Assembly (NCBI GenBank): GCA_051747065.1
Contig: JBNJFT010000001.1
Span: 15,376-56,321 of the forward strand
Source: Bacteroidota bacterium
Lineage (GTDB): Bacteria; Bacteroidota; Bacteroidia; Bacteroidales; UBA12077
Length of the DNA stretch: 40,946 bases
Direction of reading: 5' to 3'
Shown: in pieces, positions 113 to 40,946 of the stretch
How the letters are laid out: each line of letters begins with the position of its first letter
Numbering within the stretch: position 1 is the first letter of the stretch
The notes under the pieces: generated by a model
The model's input: the letters and a program-made list of their open reading frames with translations, nothing else
Databases searched by the model: none
What the model was told of the DNA's origin: nothing
Program-made: the position numbers and the translations under genes

Positions 113-330
113 AATTAGGTAGATTCAGAAGTAGAGGCAAATAATAAAATAACCAGCAATTAGCTAATGAGTAAGCAGTAAGCACTCTGCAGCAGGCAGT
201 GAACATGCTGCATGTAGTGGATAAACAAATTGTTCTCCATAATTTGCAGTAGAATAATCTAAAGTTTTGTGAGTTCTTTTCATATGTCGATGATTCAGCA
301 GCCTCGTTTTTTGATAATTTTGGTTAATTT
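113..330 (-). repeat. Modular intergenic repeat, copy A (X module plus a second head motif), reverse orientation
   Basis: 170-330 is the reverse complement of 40668-40828, equal in length (161 bp) and about 85 percent identical by eye. 113-134 is the reverse complement of the 40583-40604 head motif with 1 mismatch. Confidence 0.75.
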
Positions 331-404
331 CAATGCCGAAAATTATTACCCGGTCACGTAACACGCTAATAATTACAGCTTTAAGTTTCTATGAATGAAT
401 GCGC

Positions 405-725
405 CTAAATTAATCCCAGGTCCAGTTTGGCTTCTTCAGACATCATCTCCTTGTCCCATGGCGGATCGAATACGAGTTTAACGTCAACTTCGTTTACTTC
501 TTCTATTTCTTTAACCTTGTCATGAACTTCCTGCAGAATATCATCTGCAATCGGGCAGTTTGGAGCTGTGAGGGTCATTCGGACCTCTACGTTATTGTCA
601 TCATCTACATCAATGTTGTATATTAATCCCAAATCATAGACATTCACCGGAATTTCCGGGTCATATACTTCTTTGAGCGCCTTTACTATTTCGCCTTCAA
701 CAGCCAGAAAATCTTGTTCACTCAT
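405..725 (-). CDS. sufT: SUF system Fe-S cluster assembly protein, DUF59/SufT family
   Basis: The ORF track gives 405..794. I prefer the ATG at 725 (MSEQDFLAVEGEIV...) because the longer form overlaps the sufE 3' end. DUF59 motifs DPEIPVNVYDLGLIY and TLTAPNCP are present. It is the last gene of the suf operon. Confidence 0.85.
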   Translation of the reverse strand: MSEQDFLAVEGEIVKALKEVYDPEIPVNVYDLGLIYNIDVDDDNNVEVRMTLTAPNCPIADDILQEVHDKVKEIEEVNEVDVKLVFDPPWDKEMMSEEAKLDLGLI

Positions 726-13927: not shown

Positions 13928-16900
13928 ATGGCAAAGGACAAAAAAATAACGAGATTGAGCAAGGTGGCAAGAGAATTCAATGTGGGGATTTCAACAATTG
14001 TGGATTTTCTTCATAAAAAGGGATATGGTATCGATTCTAACCCTAATGCAAAAGTATCCCCGGAACAATACAATCTTTTGGTGGATGAATACAGTACAGA
14101 TAGTGATGTTAAGAAACAATCTCAAAAGATAAATCTGGATAAATCCCACGAGAGCAGTAAGCATTCTATTTCTATTAATGATATTGAGCAGGAAACACAA
14201 GAAGATGACACAAACTCTGAAGAATCCGGAGACGATGAGGAAATTTTCATTAAAGATGTGAGTGGAAAAGAACAAAAAAAATCTGCTCAAAAACCCAAAG
14301 AAAAAGAGACCAGTAAAGAAGAATCAGAAAAAGAGAAAGCCGCTAAGGAAGAAAAAGCAGAAAAGGCCAGGAAAGAGAAAGAAAAACAGGAAAAAGAACC
14401 TAAGGTAGTAGGCAAAATTGATTTAGATTCAGTTACCAAAAAACAAAAAGCAGAAAAAGAAGAGGATAAAAGCCAGAAAAAACAACAAGAGACCCCCGAG
14501 AAAACGGAGAAAAAAGAAAAATCCAAACAACCTTCAACAAAAGAAACAGAAAAGAAAACCTCTAAGAAAGAGGAAACGAAAGCTCCCAAGAAATCTGAAA
14601 CTGTAAAGAAAGAAGAGGAAAAGGATAAGAAAGCCAAAAAACAGGCGAAAACAGAAAAACAAGAAACGGAAGAAGCCAAAAAAGAGGAAAAAACAGACGA
14701 GAAAGTGAAAAAAACAGAAAAACCCGCTGAAGAAACACCGGAGAATGTTGCTGTTGGTCAGAAAAATACTATAGATATCAAGGACGAAGAGGAAAAAGAA
14801 CAGATTAAGGTTGTCGGAAAAATAGATCTGGATTCACTAAATCAAAAAACAAGGCCGGATAGAAAGACGCGTAAAGAAAAAGAGGCAGAACGTACGAAAA
14901 AAGAGGGTACAAAAAAAGAGGGAGCCAAAAAAGAAAGTGCGAAGAAGGAAGAAGAGAAATCTACGGATGAAAGTACAAAACCGAAAAGAAAACGAAGAAA
15001 GCGTATTAATAAAGATAAAGAAAAAGTTCAGGTAGATAACAAGACGAAACAACAAGAAGGAACAAAGGAAAAGAAAGAGCCACCAAAAAAGAAAAAGTCT
15101 AAGAAAAAACGACCTGTTCGAAATGAAGTAGACGAGGAAGATGTTCAGAAGCAGGTAAAAGAAACCCTTTCAAGGCTTACTAGTAAAGGAAAGTCAAAAG
15201 GGTCAAAATACAGAAGAGAAAAACGACAGGCTATAAATGAAAAACAGCAGGAAGAAGCAGCCAAGCAGGAGGAGGAAAAGAATGTATTGAAGGTAACGGA
15301 GTTTGTTTCCGTAAATGAATTGGCTAGTATGATGGAGGTTCCTGTCAACGATGTAATTCAAACCTGTATGAATCTCGGGTTGCTCGTTTCAATGAACCAG
15401 CGCCTGGATGCAGAAACAATGGCATTGGTTGCTGATGAGTACAATTATAAAGTGGAATTTGTAAGTGTCGAAGTACAAGAGGCAATTAAAGATGAAGAAG
15501 ACAGAGAAGAGGATTTAGAACCTCGTGATCCAATTGTTACTGTCATGGGGCACGTTGACCATGGCAAAACTTCTTTACTTGACCACATTCGTAAAGCAAA
15601 CGTAATTGCCGGCGAGGCCGGAGGTATTACCCAGCATATCGGCGCTTATCGCGTTGAAGTCACTGATGAAAAAAGAATAACATTTTTAGACACTCCCGGT
15701 CACGAAGCTTTTACGGCAATGCGTGCGAGGGGTGCACAAATTACTGATGTGGCAATTATTGTTGTTGCCGCAGATGATAATGTTATGCCCCAAACTATTG
15801 AGGCAATCAATCATGCATCTGCAGCCGGAGTGCCTATAGTCTTCGCTATCAACAAGGTAGATAAGCCCGGCGCCAGTCCGGAACGAATTAAGGAAGAGCT
15901 GGCGAATATGAATTACCTTGTAGAAGAATGGGGCGGAAAATATCAATCACAGGATATTTCTGCCAAGAAGGGTGAAAACATTGAGGCTTTGCTGGAGAAA
16001 GTTCTGCTTGAGTCTGAGCTGCTTGACCTTAAAGCGAACCCGAATAAAAATGCCATTGGCACCGTACTTGAATCATGGCTTGACAAGGGACGAGGGTATG
16101 TTTCAAATATTCTTGTACAAGCCGGAAAGATGATAATTTCAGATGTTATATTAGCAGGAAGCCACATGGGAAGGGCTAAGGCAATGTTCAATGAAAGAGG
16201 TAAAGAAATTAAAGAAGTTGGTCCTTCACAACCTGTACAGCTTCTTGGTTTAAGCGGAGCACCTCAGGCAGGGGATAAATTTAATGTGATGGACACTGAA
16301 AAAGAGGCGAAAGAGATTGCAAACAAGAGATCGCAGCTTGAACGTGAGCAGACAATGAGGACACAGAAACACATTACCCTTGATGAAATTGGACGCCGTA
16401 TTGCAATTGGCAACTTTAAAGAGGTAAATCTCGTTGTTAAAGGTGATGTTGACGGTTCTGTCGAAGCACTTTCAGATGCATTTGCAAAACTAAGTACTGA
16501 AGAAATTCAAATTAACATTATACACAAAGGCGTAGGACAAATTACGGAATCTGACATCTTATTAGCTGCTGCATCAAATGCTGTAGTTATTGGTTTCCAG
16601 GTTCGGCCTTCAGCTTCTGCACGAAAGCTTGCTGCTAAAGAACAAATTGATATTCGTTTATACTCCATTATTTATGACGCCATCAATAATATGAAAGATG
16701 CTCTTGAGGGTATGCTTGAGCCGGAGATTAAAGAGGAGATAACCGGAAATGCAGAAGTGAAAGATATCTTTAAAATTAAAAAGGTTGGAACTATTGCCGG
16801 ATGTATTGTCAAAGATGGCAAGCTGGAACGAGACAGTAAAGTCCGGGTAATTCGTGATGGTATTGTAATTCACTCAGGTGAACTCGAAAGCTTGAAACGC

Positions 16901-17050
16901 TTTAAGCAAGATGCCAAAGTGGTTACCTCAGGATATGAATGTGGTCTGAATGTTAAGAACTACAACGATATTGAAGTTGGCGATGTGATTGAAGGTTATA
17001 AAGAAGTAGAAGTCAAGAAGAGTTTAGAGGATTCGAAGAAGAAAAAATAA
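13928..17050 (+). CDS. infB: Translation initiation factor IF-2
   Basis: GTPase motifs [17 protein letters not shown] and NKVDK. 1040 aa with a roughly 390-aa Lys/Glu-rich N-terminal region. Confidence 0.96.
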
Positions 17051-17071
17051 TTGCTTTCCTTTATAAGAACT

Positions 17072-17099
17072 CAGAATACAGAATACAGAATACAGAATT
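17072..17099 (+). repeat. Tandem heptamer array (CAGAATA x3 + CAGAATT)
   Basis: Four head-to-tail 7-mers read directly from the sequence. They form the left edge of repeat copy B. Confidence 0.9.
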
Positions 17100-17296
17100 C
17101 CTACCTGCCGCCTGCCTCCCGGTAGGCAGGGCAGGCAGGCATAATGCGGTAATATCTAACTGTCAATTAAATGCAAAGATCATTGTATCTGATATCTTAA
17201 TATGTTAATTAAAAGAATGAGCGTTTTATAAAATTCTATTTAAAATTTGACCCCGCTTTTTAATCATTTTTGCATTTTTCGGGGTTTCGCCTTGCT

Positions 17297-17304
17297 TAAC
17301 TTTG
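17297..17304 (+). promoter_or_regulatory. Conserved -7-like box TAACTTTG inside repeat copy B
   Basis: Matches TAnnTTTG and is conserved in position in copies C and D. It sits 8 nt after the invariant 24-mer. Confidence 0.4.
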
Positions 17305-17388
17305 CCATTAACCTCCTGTTTTTCGTAACATTGCTTACTTGTGAATGTGACTGTTGATTATCAGAATATGACTGCAGAAAGTTACATG

Positions 17389-22542: not shown

Positions 22543-23901
22543 ATGAATTTTGAATTAACTAAGGAATTTTTAGATGAATTAAGGGAACGGATAGACAATA
22601 AGGATGAAACCAGTGCCTACAAAATGATCGAGGATCTTCATCCTGCTGATATTGCCGAAATTTATGATGAATTGAACATTCAGGAAGCTCGTTTTCTGCA
22701 TATCATGCTTGACGGAGAAAAAGCAGCAGATGTTCTAATAGAGCTTGAGCAGGATGACCGCCGGCGATTTTTGGAAGTACTTCCGGGTGATGTTATAGCC
22801 AAACAATTTATTGATAAGCTTGATTCGGATGATGCTGCGGACGTTTTGGGGGAACTGTCCAAAGAAAAAAGGGAAGAGGTTTTATCTTCTGTAGAGAATA
22901 TGAAACAAGCCGGTGACATTGCCGACTTGTTAAGTTATGATGAGAATTCAGCCGGTGGATTGATGGCCAAAGAACTCATCACCGTGAATGAGAACTGGAA
23001 CATAACAACGTGTTTGAAGGAATTACGCAAGCAAGCCGAAGACATAGAAGAAATTTATTATGTTTATGTAGTTGATGACGATAATAAACTTAAAGGAACA
23101 CTTTCATTAAAAAAACTGTTGCTTTCTCCCAGCACAACGAGCATAAAAGACATACTCAACACAGATGTTATTTCAGTGAAGACAGATACAGATTCTGAGG
23201 AAGTGGCAAATATTATGGATAAATATGACCTGGTTGCCCTGCCTGTTGTTGATTCCCTGGATCGACTCGTAGGACGTATCACGATTGATGACGTAGTGGA
23301 TGTAATTCGTGAAGAAGCCGGCAGAGATTATCAAATGGTTTCAGGTATTTCGGAAAAAGTAGAAGCTTCAGACACTGCTTTTCAATTGACACGAGCAAGA
23401 ATCCCCTGGCTGTTTATCGGTCTGTTAGGTGGAATTTTCGGAGCTATTGTAATTGGTTTTTACGAAAATGATCTGCATATCTATCCCGAAATGGCCTTCT
23501 TTATTCCTTTAATCGCTGCAATGGGTGGGAATGTAGGCGTTCAGTCCTCGTCAATCATCGTACAGTCTTTGGCTTATGATTCATTAGGAGTAGAAAGTAT
23601 TGGGAGAAAACTACTCAAAGAATTGGGAGTGGCATCTATCAATGGTATTATTTTGTCTTCAGTTATTTTCCTTTATAATTTCTTTTTTACAGAATCTTTT
23701 GCCTTAACAATAACAGTCAGCACAGCGCTTTTTGCAGTGATCATTTTTGCATCGATTTTTGGAACGTTTATTCCTCTTTTGATGAATAAATTTAAAATTG
23801 ACCCGGCTCTGGCTACCGGGCCTTTTATCACAACTGTCAATGACATAATGGGACTATTTATTTATTTAATGATTGGCAGAATGTTTTACGGGATATTGTA
23901 A
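22543..23901 (+). CDS. mgtE: Magnesium transporter MgtE
   Basis: MgtE N-domain, a CBS pair (VVDDDNKLKGTLSLKKLL; VVDSLDRLVGRITIDDV) and a C-terminal 5-TM domain. Confidence 0.93.
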   Translation: MNFELTKEFLDELRERIDNKDETSAYKMIEDLHPADIAEIYDELNIQEARFLHIMLDGEKAADVLIELEQDDRRRFLEVLPGDVIAKQFIDKLDSDDAADVLGELSKEKREEVLSSVENMKQAGDIADLLSYDENSAGGLMAKELITVNENWNITTCLKELRKQAEDIEEIYYVYVVDDDNKLKGTLSLKKLLLSPSTTSIKDILNTDVISVKTDTDSEEVANIMDKYDLVALPVVDSLDRLVGRITIDDVVDVIREEAGRDYQMVSGISEKVEASDTAFQLTRARIPWLFIGLLGGIFGAIVIGFYENDLHIYPEMAFFIPLIAAMGGNVGVQSSSIIVQSLAYDSLGVESIGRKLLKELGVASINGIILSSVIFLYNFFFTESFALTITVSTALFAVIIFASIFGTFIPLLMNKFKIDPALATGPFITTVNDIMGLFIYLMIGRMFYGIL

Positions 23902-24117
23902 GGCGGCAGCTTTTGAATAGAGAATGCAGAATACAGACACCTACCTGCCGCCTGGCTGCAGGCAGAATACGATAAAACTAACTATCAACGAAATACAAAA
24001 AAATTGTATCTGATGTTTTAATGTGTTAATTGAAAGAATGAGCGTTTTATAAAATTCTATTTACAATTTGACCCTGCTTTTTTATCATTTTTGCATTTTT
24101 CGGGGTTTCACTTTACT

Positions 24118-24125
24118 TAATTTTG
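24118..24125 (+). promoter_or_regulatory. Conserved -7-like box TAATTTTG inside repeat copy C
   Basis: Matches TAnnTTTG with the same spacing from the invariant 24-mer as in copies B and D. Confidence 0.4.
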
Positions 24126-24306
24126 TTTTTAACTTCTTGTATTCCAAAACATTACTTGCTCATGAAAGTGCCTATTTAGGAAAAGGCGCGTTATTCAACG
24201 CCGGCCACTTTCTCCACTTAGTTTACTCAATCAACTCAGTCAACTCAATTTACTTTAATTCTCTCATTGCAAGAAATGAAAAGAATTCTATATCCTATTA
24301 GGTTCC

Positions 24307-24334
24307 GAATTCTGAATTCTGAATTCTGCATTCT
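24307..24334 (-). repeat. Tandem heptamer array (GAATTCT x3 + GCATTCT; reverse complement of AGAATTC/AGAATGC)
   Basis: Four head-to-tail 7-mers, inverted relative to the CAGAAT motif at the left end of copy C. Confidence 0.85.
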
Positions 24335-24397
24335 GTCTTCTAATTTACCTGTTTGACGTTTTTTTCCGAAATTTTCTAAAGAAATCTTACAACTGAC

Positions 24398-25279
24398 CTA
24401 TTCGTTATTTTCATTTCCCAGATACTTGTAGATTGCCGAAAAATCTTTGTCTGCGTAACCGGAGTTTTTAGCCTGCGCATAAATCTCTTTAATGAGATTG
24501 ACTGCCGGCAAAGCAATACCTTGTTCATAAGCTGTCTCGGAAGCTAATTGAAGGTCCTTTTGCAACCATTTTAGAGGAAATTCAGCTTCATAATTTTTTT
24601 GATCCATCTTTTCCCGTTTTGTAGTTATAAAAGGTGCTACAACCGGTGAGCCCAATAAAGTATTAAAAAGTGTGTCCTTATCAATTCCCAGAGATTCACC
24701 TAAAGCCATTCCTTCTGAAAATGCATTCATTGCCTGTCCCAATAGTAAGTTAAATACCATTTTTAAGGACGTACCCTTTCCATTCTCTCCCACATGGATG
24801 TACTTTTTTCCCATTATCTCAAAAAAATGAGCACAGTTGCTTACTAACTCTGCATCACCCCCGACAAGAAAGATTAACTCTCCATTCTCGGCCGGTTCTT
24901 TTGATCCTGCTACTGGTGCGTCTAAAAACTGTATGCCGGCTTTTTCGCTTGATGAGGCCATTTTCTTTGTGAAGGAAGGATTCACGGTACTTGAATCAAT
25001 CCATGTAGCCCCTGAATTAAGATATTTTAGAAACCCTTCCTCACCGATGGCTACCTGTTCTACAACCGAAGGAGATGACAGCATAGTGAAAAGGATGTCT
25101 GCACCTTCCGCCACTTTAGCAGGAGATCCTTTCCATGATACGTTTTTCCTCTTCAATAAATTGCTGGCTTTCCCTTTTGTTCTATTGTATATTAGCAACT
25201 CATAACCAGCTTCCGCAAGGTTTTCTGCCATGCGGCTGCCCATGATTCCTAATCCGATAAATCCGACTTTCATAAACAC
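24398..25279 (-). CDS. NAD(P)-dependent oxidoreductase, 3-hydroxyisobutyrate / 6-phosphogluconate dehydrogenase-like
   Basis: Rossmann motif GFIGLGIMGSRMA, 293 aa. The true start may be the second Met at 25273 (MKVGFIGLG). Confidence 0.85.
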   Translation of the reverse strand: MFMKVGFIGLGIMGSRMAENLAEAGYELLIYNRTKGKASNLLKRKNVSWKGSPAKVAEGADILFTMLSSPSVVEQVAIGEEGFLKYLNSGATWIDSSTVNPSFTKKMASSSEKAGIQFLDAPVAGSKEPAENGELIFLVGGDAELVSNCAHFFEIMGKKYIHVGENGKGTSLKMVFNLLLGQAMNAFSEGMALGESLGIDKDTLFNTLLGSPVVAPFITTKREKMDQKNYEAEFPLKWLQKDLQLASETAYEQGIALPAVNLIKEIYAQAKNSGYADKDFSAIYKYLGNENNE

Positions 25280-25351: not shown

Positions 25352-25440
25352 GGAGAAGTGGCAGAGTGGCCGAATGCGGCGGTCTCGAAAACCGTTGTCC
25401 GGCTATCGCCGGACCGGGGGTTCGAATCCCCCCTTCTCCG
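25352..25440 (+). tRNA. tRNA-Ser (anticodon CGA)
   Basis: The cloverleaf folds by hand. The acceptor is GGAGAAG/CTTCTCC, the anticodon loop is CTCGAAA, the long variable arm is TCCGG..CCGGA, and the T-arm is GGGGG-TTCGAAT-CCCCC. No CCA is encoded. Confidence 0.93.
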
Positions 25441-25457
25441 CTTTTTAGATGAAATAC

Positions 25458-38952: not shown

Positions 38953-40357
38953 CGTTTGGACAAATATTGACTGGTTTACTGTTATTCTTTATGTTATTCT
39001 TGTGTTCATAGGGTGGTTGACAATTTATTCTGCTCTCTATAATGAAGAGCATAAGAGTGTTTTTGATCTTTCTCAACGGTATGGCAAACAATTTTTATGG
39101 ATATCTGCAGCATTTTTGCTCGCTATCCTTATTATGGTTATAGATAGTAATTTCTTTTCATTTTTTGCTTATGGCTTTTATGTGCTTGTAATCATCTTAT
39201 TGATAGCCGTGCTTTTTTTCGGAGAAGAAACTCAAGGTTCAAAAGCCTGGTTGAGAATTGGCAATGTGAAGTTCCAGCCTGCTGAATTTGCCAAAGTTGC
39301 TACTGCCTTAACCATTGCAAAGTATCTAAGTGGCTTTAACGTGAAATTAAATGTGCTAAAAACTTACTTTAGAGTAGCCATGCTCATCTTACTTCCTATG
39401 GCTTTGGTCTTTATTCATGATGCAGGTACGGCACTTGTATTTGTAGCCTTTCTTTTGCCACTATACAGAGAAGGTTTATCATCTGCTGTTTTATTATTAG
39501 GTGTATATTTTATTATCCTTTTTATTCTCTCTTTCCTGGTTGAAAAGATTATACTAACCCTGGGAGCTATTTTTATTGTTCATCTAATCTTCTTGTTCAT
39601 TCAACGAAATATAAAACAAACCCTGGTTTCTCTGCTCATTTTTATCGGAATATCTGGTCTTTTCCTTGGAATTAATCAATTATCCGGCTTCAGCATTGAC
39701 TATATATATATAATACTGGGAGGTTTTATCGGTTCGAGTATATTTTACCTCATTCTTTCATATTATCATAAAATTTCTAAAGTCCCATTATATATATTGT
39801 TTGTTTTTGCTTCTATTACATTTACGTATTCAATAGATTTTGCTTTTGACAGCTTCTTGCAACCTCATCAGCAAAGGCGGATAGTCCAAATAATGGGATT
39901 AGAAGACAGTCCGCAAGGTGCCGGTTACAATGTTAATCAATCAGTAATTGCTATCGGGTCGGGAGGTTTTTCCGGGAAAGGCTATTTGAAGGGGACTCAG
40001 ACCAAATATGATTTTGTACCTGAACAGAGTACAGATTTTATTTTCAGCACAATAGGGGAAGAATTTGGTTTTGTCGGGTCGTCTATTTTGATTATATTAT
40101 TTGTCACCCTGTTATTACGGCTGATATTTCTTGCAGAAAGACAGCGTTCTTTTTTTAGCCGGATTTATGGATATGGTGTAATTTCCGTTTTTTTATTCCA
40201 TTTTATAATCAATATCGGCATGACAATAGGTTTGGCACCTGTAATTGGCATTCCTTTACCTTTTATCAGCTATGGTGGCTCATCCCTTTGGGCTTTTACC
40301 GTAATGCTTTTTATTTTTATCCGGTTAGATGTGAGTCGGTTAAAAGTGTTAAGATAG
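38936..40357 (+). CDS. rodA: Rod shape-determining SEDS glycosyltransferase RodA
   Basis: SEDS family polytopic protein (PEQSTDFIFS, ISYGGSS). It overlaps the mrdA stop by 17 nt. Confidence 0.92.
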   Translation: MRRKINVWTNIDWFTVILYVILVFIGWLTIYSALYNEEHKSVFDLSQRYGKQFLWISAAFLLAILIMVIDSNFFSFFAYGFYVLVIILLIAVLFFGEETQGSKAWLRIGNVKFQPAEFAKVATALTIAKYLSGFNVKLNVLKTYFRVAMLILLPMALVFIHDAGTALVFVAFLLPLYREGLSSAVLLLGVYFIILFILSFLVEKIILTLGAIFIVHLIFLFIQRNIKQTLVSLLIFIGISGLFLGINQLSGFSIDYIYIILGGFIGSSIFYLILSYYHKISKVPLYILFVFASITFTYSIDFAFDSFLQPHQQRRIVQIMGLEDSPQGAGYNVNQSVIAIGSGGFSGKGYLKGTQTKYDFVPEQSTDFIFSTIGEEFGFVGSSILIILFVTLLLRLIFLAERQRSFFSRIYGYGVISVFLFHFIINIGMTIGLAPVIGIPLPFISYGGSSLWAFTVMLFIFIRLDVSRLKVLR

Positions 40358-40363
40358 GCAGTT

Positions 40364-40593
40364 TCAGAAGTATCGGCTATATTTCTATTTCTGAGGTAAC
40401 ACAGCTTTTTTCTATTTTTGATTGTTTTCGAGGTCGTAAAAGTTAAATAGATTTTTCATATGCAGGTATTTTATATTATCTCATTGCTAGCCAAGAAATG
40501 AATTCTATAGCCTTTAACTGTTACCAAATCGCTACTAACTACTTTTCTTTCAGCTAAAAAAATGTGTTTCTAAGATTATCTTCTACTTCTGAA
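40364..40593 (+). repeat. Short repeat unit D1 bounded by inverted TTCAGAAGTA / TACTTCTGAA
   Basis: 10-bp perfect inverted repeat (40364-40373 versus 40584-40593). The internal 40480-40520 resembles the tail of copy C (24263-24300). Confidence 0.5.
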
Positions 40594-40946
40594 TCTTCCT
40601 AATTATCAAAGGAATACAAAAATATTGTGTCTGGTATTTTAATGTGTTAATAAAAAGAATCAGCACTAAATTAACAAATATTATTAAAAAACGAGGTTAC
40701 GGAATTATTTACATACAAAAGGAACTCACAAAACTTTAGGTTATTCTAATGCGGATTATGGAGAGCAATTTGTTTATCCATTATGTGCTGCATATTCACT
40801 GCCTACTGCAAAGTGCTTACTGCTTACTTGCTACCCTGCTTTTTACTCATTTTTGCATTTTTCGGGGTTTCGATTTTCTTAATTTTGTCGTAAATTTCTT
40901 GCAATTCAAGATATTGTCTGCTTCTAAAGACACCTATTTTTCACTT
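40583..40946 (+). repeat. Modular intergenic repeat, copy D (head variant + module 1 + 161-bp X module + core), truncated by the window end
   Basis: Module 1 (40613-40664) and the core (40842-40897) align to copies B and C. 40668-40828 aligns to the reverse complement of 170-330. Confidence 0.75.
40890..40897 (+). promoter_or_regulatory. Conserved -7-like box TAATTTTG inside repeat copy D
   Basis: Matches TAnnTTTG with the same spacing from the invariant 24-mer as in copies B and C. Confidence 0.4.

Follow-up and report, generated by a model that had tools for sequence, protein, structure and literature searches.

A probable mosaic of MITE-like repeat modules between inverted heptamer arrays at a convergent mgtE-dehydrogenase junction of an uncultured Bacteroidales bacterium

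The DNA analysed here (the window; 40,946 nt from an uncultured Bacteroidales bacterium) contains a 496-bp intergenic gap (23902-24397), flanked by the convergent stops of an mgtE gene and of a gene for a 3-hydroxyisobutyrate/6-phosphogluconate dehydrogenase (6PGDH)-type dehydrogenase (Table 1). [quoted passage not shown] The underlying description was confirmed: (i) annotation of both flanking genes places their convergent stops around the gap, (ii) direct comparison of the left arm (23915-23937; GAATAGAGAATGCAGAATACAGA) with the reverse complement of 24318-24340 gives agreement at 20 of 23 positions, (iii) both ends are made of CAGAATN 7-mers, detected by Tandem Repeats Finder (TRF) as period-7 arrays (the right one at 24303-24335, with 4.7 copies and 92% matches), (iv) no target-site duplication was seen in the flanks outside these arrays, and (v) the 426 bp hold no convincing open reading frame (ORF), the only one in the gap being a TTG-start frame of 77 aa (24068-24301) with no match in Pfam, whose downstream half is sequence absent from the two related copies, B and D, found elsewhere in the window. 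Matches to three consecutive units (CAGAATNCAGAATNCAGAAT, i.e. CAGAATN x3 with at most 3 mismatches) number 10 in the window, where 0.07 would be expected, and all of them are confined to three arrays, namely the left and right arrays of the gap (copy C) and one array in copy B. What did not stand is the complete 426-bp unit, since only positions 23958-24175 recur elsewhere. Between its inverted CAGAATN arrays, the gap contains a diverged family copy without its left end, a GC-rich motif that copy B also has, and filler of about 130 bp, and we propose, with moderate confidence, that it is a mosaic in which MITE-family modules were placed within a palindromic heptamer array, at its centre.

Table 1. 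Features of the window, and state of the orthologous mgtE-dehydrogenase junction in relatives, with clades grouped by mgtE amino-acid identity to the window
Feature	Position or contigs	Strand	Remarks
MgtE gene	22543-23901	+	stop TAA at 23899-23901
3-hydroxyisobutyrate/6PGDH-type dehydrogenase gene	24398-25279	-	convergent with mgtE
5' arm of 9-bp GC stem	23901-23909	+	AGGCGGCAG; overlaps last base of mgtE stop codon
Left heptamer array	23915-23937	+	GAATAGA GAATGCA GAATACA GA; TRF period 7, 3.3 copies
Segment missing from sister species	23936-24306		371 bp; L023, L025, L026; the single gap in the pairwise global alignment of window and sister
GC-rich motif	23940-23959	+	CCTACCTGCCGCCTGGCTGC; holds 3' arm of 9-bp stem (23945-23953)
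Repeat-family body	23958-24175	+	nhmmer E 2.6e-41; model positions 48-264 of 265
Core hairpin ACCCTG-N24-CGGGGT	24071-24106	+	overlaps 24-mer CATTTTTGCATTTTTCGGGGTTTC
Degenerate right terminal repeat	24153-24174	+	TACTTGCTCATGAAAGTGCCTA versus consensus TACTTGTGAATACGCCTA
Terminator-like palindrome GGCGTTGAATAACGCGCC, then TTTT	24185-24202	-	direction of dehydrogenase transcript
9-mer array ACTCAATCA x2.8	24225-24249	+	filler not common to other family copies
Repeat fragment	24251-24296	+	81% identical to 40467-40513, inside rodA-downstream repeat cluster
Right heptamer array	24303-24340	-	inverted relative to left; + strand GAATTCT x3, GCATTCT, GTCTTC
Copy B	17056-17351	+	between infB and UPF0182 stop codons
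Copy D	40356-40937	+	downstream of rodA; three collinear pieces, model 1-31, 68-134, 160-264
A-type relative	116-405	+	left terminal repeat TAGGTAGATTCAGAAGTAGAGG, heptads (AGTAAGC...) from 170, degenerate core
Junction, 96% clade (~81% nt)	L023, L025, L026		gap 70 bp; both heptamer arms abut
Junction, 96% clade	L015, L016		gap not applicable; group II intron within ~5 nt of palindrome apex
Junction, 93% clade	L017-L020		gap 137 bp; no arrays; a short pair of terminal motifs of the family type
Junction, 92% clade	L039, L040		gap roughly 30-40 bp; no arrays
Junction, 90% clade	L021, L022		gap 27 bp; no arrays

Copies of the family outside the window were collected by an exact search with a 22-mer from its core, which returned one contig of a metagenome-assembled genome (MAG) and 13 metagenome contigs; 11 of these 13 are related to the family, and the other two (L004 and L006) are chance coding matches. 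Within the window, copies B (17.1 kb), C and D (40.6 kb) resemble one another in the middle of the region and not at its edges. The edges are apparent in four metagenome copies (L005, L007, L012 and L013), which are 92-94% identical to one another over ~265 bp, lie in unrelated flanks, and cease sharply to resemble one another at AGGCAGATTCAGAAGTA (left) and GAATACGCCTA (right). The family is bounded at these points by 17-nt imperfect terminal inverted repeats (14 of 17 positions agree by eye when AGGCAGATTCAGAAGTA is set against the right end, AGGCGTATTCACAAGTA, in reverse complement), and its intact members, of ~266 bp, end in (T)AGGCAGATTCAGAAGTA and TACTTGTGAATACGCC(TA). With the TA at its edge the end can be written (TA)GGCAGATTCAGAAGTA: by manual count over L001-L026 and the window, T precedes most of the 36 occurrences of the terminal motif (TA/GGC), and right ends read ...CGCC/TA, which fits either a TA duplication or TA as part of the end. 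In the window, the terminal motif has 4 matches against 0.11 expected.

With a unit of ~266 bp, inside the MITE size range of 50-1000 bp, no transposase ORF, four loci within the 41 kb of the window and 12 related ones in the metagenome and MAG contigs, this is a MITE-like family, common in an uncultured Bacteroidales lineage and previously undescribed. Of the 7 loci for which both sides are known, 6 have the repeat between convergent gene ends. The MITE-like architecture proposed initially is thus retained for the dispersed, non-coding family that is present in the gap, but not for the heptamer arrays, which do not form the ends of what is repeated. The sharp terminal repeats, the unrelated flanks, the many copies, the TA edges and the location at convergent gene ends together suggest that the family may move as a non-autonomous DNA transposon, which would be served in trans by a transposase and might insert into, and duplicate, TA.

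A place for the arrays within the family was provided by the long-form elements and by a second type of relative. The 265-position nhmmer model built from L005, L007, L012 and L013 holds the degenerate heptads AAGAATC CAGAATG AAGAACT CAGAAAA at its positions 33-60, so that in intact members they lie 30-60 nt inward of the left end. In what we term A-type elements (window 116-405 and L001, L003, L010, L012, L014, L017, L032 and L036), the terminal repeat is followed by ~55 nt and then by heptads, which in L010 are perfect AGAATGC repeats and in others are GTAAGCA, GGCAGTC and similar units. As heptads occur inside both long-form and A-type elements, the arrays represent a native, subterminal and sequence-variable module of the superfamily. 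Their sequence differs from copy to copy (CAGAATA, GTAAGCA, CTGCCGA, AAAGCCA), and their length is polymorphic too: L027, from a strain of the window's own species and 98.5% identical to the window over 1534 nt, departs from it exactly at 23937/23938, where it carries extra GAATACA units that make its left array at least 2 units longer, so that the arrays behave as slipping microsatellites. The arrays are best read as hypervariable microsatellite modules of the family, and not as transposition termini.

The orthologous junctions of relatives offered a direct comparison (Table 1). In the sister species (the 96% clade), the gap reads TAA GTT GAATGCA GAATCCA GAATCCA GAATTCT GTGTTCT GTGCTCCT GTCTCC ... 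TTA and folds into a hairpin of -20.1 kcal/mol (z = -2.8). Window and sister species differ by the presence or absence of a 371-bp centre, whose break points fall in the arrays and not at the family's terminal repeats. The search for empty sites, proposed initially as the check on mobility, gave a clear difference in presence: the centre is absent from the sister, and gaps of 27-137 bp without arrays are found farther out. The arms persist in the sister without the centre. Arms and centre are therefore separable, and the 426 bp is not one array-bounded piece. Among the contigs compared, the arms are confined to the window's species and its sister. In addition, relatives have a second mobile element at this apex. 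It is a group II intron, carried on the minus strand of the mgtE-dehydrogenase gap in L015 (11389-13426) and also in the tail of L016, as supported by matches to RF02005 (126 bits) and RF00029 (43 bits) and by a 429-aa protein with reverse transcriptase and maturase domains. L023-L026, from other strains of the same sister species, lack this intron.

Under the reading that we prefer, the common ancestor of the window's species and its sister would already have had a palindromic heptamer array here; MITE-family sequence and filler, together forming the 371-bp centre, would then have been inserted or recombined at its apex in the window's lineage, while part of the sister lineage would have received the group II intron there. 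The palindrome may thus be an insertion hot spot, a suggestion drawn from two events at one locus, and its hairpins might contribute to 3'-end formation of the convergent genes.

The same observations could be accommodated by a foldback-type non-autonomous element, in which the arrays would be the terminal repeats around a variable centre and the 70-bp hairpin of the sister an arms-only copy. The complementarity of the two arms is what such an element should show; the layout recurs in L013, where the locus is unrelated, L001, L010, L012 and L014 carry an inverted left-end module with heptads beyond the core, and the junction between the array and CCTACCTGCCGCCTG is common to copies B and C. 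Against this, the near-identical copies end at the 17-nt repeats and the heptads are located inside that boundary. Arrays limit the unit on both sides only in copy C and L013, so that the initial proposal of arrays as its general limits is not sustained: copy B, L005 and L007 are without an inverted array at the right, and in copy B the CAGAA motifs of the right flank are direct and not inverted, as had been reported. Moreover, array sequences that differ among copies argue against a sequence-specific end, and no duplication flanks the arrays. On balance, we regard a foldback element as unlikely.

The internal composition of copy C is that of a mosaic. Its alignment to the long-form model begins at position 48, which means that the left terminal repeat is missing. 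Upstream of the body, the first 15 nt of the GC-rich motif CCTACCTGCCGCCTGGCTGC are identical to copy B 17100-17114, and CCTACCTGCC also sits just before the L007 copy. To the right of 24175, ~130 bp is not family sequence, apart from a 46-nt fragment like that of the rodA cluster. Possible degenerate family ends at the two stop codons flanking copy C (TAAGGCGGCAG... and ...GACCTA) were considered and rejected, as a model built from ten A-type left ends had no match at either end of copies C or B, even at E<=20.

Copy B has a comparable build, with a (CAGAATA)3.9 array (17072-17098; perfect by TRF), a GC-rich hairpin (17100-17139) and a family body (17156-17351; E 5.6e-35 against the long-form model). 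The derived junction that joins the array to CCTACCTGCCGCCTG, and the body that follows, are thus common to copies B and C at two loci, which indicates one sub-family whose left array travelled with the body. That the left array represents the unit's own heptads was not accepted, the matches being collinear and not individually significant (E 1.5 for B and 9.2 for C), and is kept only as a possibility.

These features bear on a further alternative, in which an ancestral composite would have later lost its 371-bp centre in the sister species, or the centre would have been copied in by array recombination or template switching, i.e. the recombination-generated cassette already considered in the initial annotation. 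Copies B and C both lack the left terminal repeat and have an array where the unit's heptads would be, as array-mediated capture predicts; the arrays slip readily, and the number of events equals that of the reading we prefer. However, there is no simple mechanism for an inter-arm deletion that would leave both arms and a neat GAATTC apex, no right-side homology by which a conversion tract could be resolved (copy B being without a matching right array), and the array matches to the unit heptads are not individually significant (E 0.3-9). We therefore consider this course of events fairly unlikely.

A structural role for the transcripts was also examined. As originally stated, AGGCGGCAG (23901-23909) is perfectly complementary to CTGCCGCCT (23945-23953); taken alone, this exact 9-bp complement is weak. 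Its 5' arm is mostly inside a 10-nt stretch (23903-23912) that the sister species is without. Inverted repeats of this kind (9 bp, perfect, loop 3-60 nt) number 20 in the window against ~15 in shuffled sequences, and the local RNA fold around the stem has z = -0.14, so that the stem was rejected as a significant structure. The only canonical terminator-like site of the gap is that on the minus strand at 24185-24202, which could serve the dehydrogenase gene. Reading by eye gave no clean match to the Bacteroidetes -7 element TAnnTTTG, and a sigma-70 promoter scan returned fewer sites than in shuffles.

The infB junction provides a second setting for such hairpins. The GC-rich hairpin of copy B (CCTACCTGCCGCCTGCC...GGCAGGGCAGGCAGG; -28.7 kcal/mol, z = -1.8) lies ~50 nt past the infB stop, at the place where relatives have a canonical terminator. 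In the usable infB junctions of relatives (the infB homologue search gave mostly partial proteins), canonical terminators were found together with a mini terminal-repeat pair and no arrays; in L028, the short element adjoins a canonical bidirectional terminator downstream of infB.

It may accordingly be asked whether the element is a functional RNA or 3' untranslated region module, acting as a terminator or stabiliser hairpin or as a small RNA from the core, which would be selected and not mobile. The 24-mer CATTTTTGCATTTTTCGGGGTTTC (24086-24109) is invariant in the three window copies B, C and D, which are otherwise 78-85% identical; 12 of the 14 copies retain the 6-bp core stem ACCCYG...CGGGGT, in which C/U exchanges are the sole changes, and so does L036, with a different loop; elements begin at, or a few nucleotides from, stop codons; and after infB the window has the repeat's GC-rich hairpin where relatives have a canonical terminator. 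In contrast, no Rfam match was obtained for the element: at the gathering score the whole window gave only a tRNA-Ser, and at E<=5 positions 23850-24450 gave only a 12-bit chance match to a snoRNA. Fold z-scores were not significant, at -0.14, -1.1 and -1.7 (-1.7 for the whole region), the core stem is without compensatory changes and its 3' arm was fixed by the search pattern, no terminator-like site lies on the + strand downstream of the mgtE stop, and the sharp terminal-repeat boundaries with unrelated flanks point to mobile DNA. A selected RNA module is thus highly improbable as the explanation of the gap, and the core 24-mer with its stem hints at a constrained site.

Several points weigh against a mosaic placed into a pre-existing palindrome: (i) the junction shared by copies B and C sits uneasily with a purely pre-existing left arm at mgtE; (ii) in L013, an array, a unit and an inverted CAGAAT-type array follow one another at a second locus, which a composite or foldback element would fit equally well; (iii) a palindrome that came first and a centre that was lost in the sister each take two events; (iv) intergenic orthology of the junction is judged from short flanks, with a sister only ~81% identical in DNA; (v) for copies that have the family's own terminal repeats at both ends, empty sites were not encountered; (vi) neither the nine window ORFs scanned against Pfam nor the fetched loci yielded a transposase with matching ends; and (vii) the exact 22-mer search biases statements on conservation of the core. 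A bolder generalisation, which we hold to be doubtful, would make heptamer palindromes at convergent gene ends dedicated landing pads for unrelated mobile elements in this Bacteroidales lineage, or else would give the subterminal arrays a function within a new MITE superfamily, either by lining up binding sites or by serving as handles for recombination, with which bodies could spread without terminal repeats.

The remaining members of the family show further rearrangement. The three pieces of copy D are interrupted by two other repeat fragments. Its terminal TAGGCAG overlaps the TAG stop of rodA (40355-40357), and the right end of the window's A-type element (...GAATGCGCCTA) contributes its CTA as the TAG stop of a minus-strand Fe-S assembly gene. 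Altogether, the neighbour's stop coincides with the repeat's terminal TAG (TAGGCAG.../TAGGCGC...) in three cases, i.e. rodA, the Fe-S assembly gene (405-407, minus strand) and an ORF of L003 (~516-518); as RodA has 473 aa in relatives too, the position of its stop is itself conserved. A 161-nt inverted repeat (170-330 / 40668-40828; 85% complementary) has A-type pieces for both arms, one of them nested in the cluster downstream of rodA. An invertible segment was considered, as L001 and copy D have the 161-nt A-module in opposite orientations with respect to the core. It was rejected and the arrangement read as mosaicism, since the copy D pieces do not follow the order expected from a simple inversion or nesting and no flanking recombinase was seen.

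Other observations concern individual contigs and the surroundings of the gap. Very short elements (~55-85 bp), with little beyond a pair of terminal motifs, were seen in L028 (1413-1510), L029, L030 and L017 (5756-5815). In L009, a gene for an IS3-type transposase OrfA (HTH_Tnp_1; 101-487) starts 11 nt past the right end of a family copy, and no link between this OrfA and the family ends was established. L001 (JBNJGH010000313.1), which is 2.8 kb long and belongs to a MAG labelled Candidatus Rifleibacteriota, bears a copy ~80% identical to the window's A-type element; this contig may be mis-binned, the window proteins all pointing to Bacteroidales. A GAACACG-type imperfect heptamer array lies between convergent histidine-kinase and TrkH genes in L015 (5560-5592), and also in L016, L023 and L024, with no recognisable family sequence near it. 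Next to the dehydrogenase gene, and before an aldo/keto reductase gene, is a tRNA-Ser(CGA) gene (25352-25441), the window's only Rfam match. The N-terminal part (14300-15270) of translation initiation factor IF-2 (13928-17050) is a long Lys/Glu-rich low-complexity region, in which the repeat finder reports many imperfect direct repeats. An exact-protein look-up with the window MgtE returned no record, a BLAST search of the gap against plasmids gave no match, and the same was true of viral contigs scanned with the core 22-mer.

For annotation, these data add a new intergenic repeat family of uncultured Bacteroidales, with real ends, a core and a heptamer module, that occupies the space between convergent genes and three times provides the neighbour's TAG stop. 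Its arrays explain assembly breaks, as in L027, a Logan contig that ends inside an array. The junction with two mobile elements at one apex provides a locus for asking whether hairpin-forming microsatellites attract insertions. The understanding of MITEs is unchanged; they gain a member with an unusual microsatellite module.

Among known systems, eukaryotic Foldback elements have inverted arms made of short tandem repeats in variable number, around a centre that is variable or absent. They differ in being eukaryotic and much larger, and the arms seen in the window fail as boundaries of the family. Heptameric repeats of a similar intergenic kind are the cyanobacterial short tandemly repeated repetitive (STRR) sequences. 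A tandem heptamer, GGGAATC, occurs intergenically in Xanthomonas and Nostoc, near the 3' end of the upstream gene, and varies among relatives (PMC4692102). It shares with the present arrays the tandem intergenic arrangement and the variability of length and sequence between close relatives. The GGGAATC repeats, however, are G-rich, quadruplex-capable and not reported in MITEs, whereas CAGAATN is A/T-rich and tied to a terminal-repeat family.

Repetitive extragenic palindromic (REP) sequences and the bacterial interspersed mosaic elements (BIMEs) that they form are insertion targets of IS1397 and ISPpu9 (PMC1525189, PMC12288879). The likeness lies in an intergenic palindrome at gene ends that is struck repeatedly, here by the 371-bp mosaic and by the group II intron. 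In contrast to those palindromes, that of the window is made of tandem heptamers and has no GTAG head, and no REP-associated tyrosine transposase (RAYT) or targeting insertion sequence was seen; none of the nine window ORFs scanned is RAYT-like. The family is also distinct from REP, BIME and REPIN elements in that its unit is ~266 bp and not palindromic, and the hairpin of the sister species consists of tandem heptamers. The pneumococcal BOX, RUP and SPRITE elements are modular, with variable numbers of subunits, and form intergenic clusters in which one element is inserted into another (PMC10969869). Copy D, L010, L012 and L013 are equally modular and nested; the phylum is another one, the sequences are unrelated, and the BOX subunits of ~45 nt contrast with a heptamer microsatellite.

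BrickBuilt of Porphyromonas gingivalis is a Bacteroidales MITE in which a leader and a tail with short terminal repeats surround a 23-nt tandem repeat (PMC4596501), and for which promoter activity was assayed (PMC4596501). No sequence similarity was found between BrickBuilt and the window family. In BrickBuilt, the 23-nt repeat makes up most of the element and the ends (GAGACCTTTGCA) are IS5-like and unrelated to AGGCAGATTCAGAAGTA, while the repeat of the window family is 7 nt, short and subterminal. Both are small, non-coding intergenic elements of Bacteroidales hosts, with a tandem repeat of variable copy number, many partial copies and no internal transposase, and BrickBuilt is the nearest described analogue of the family reported here.

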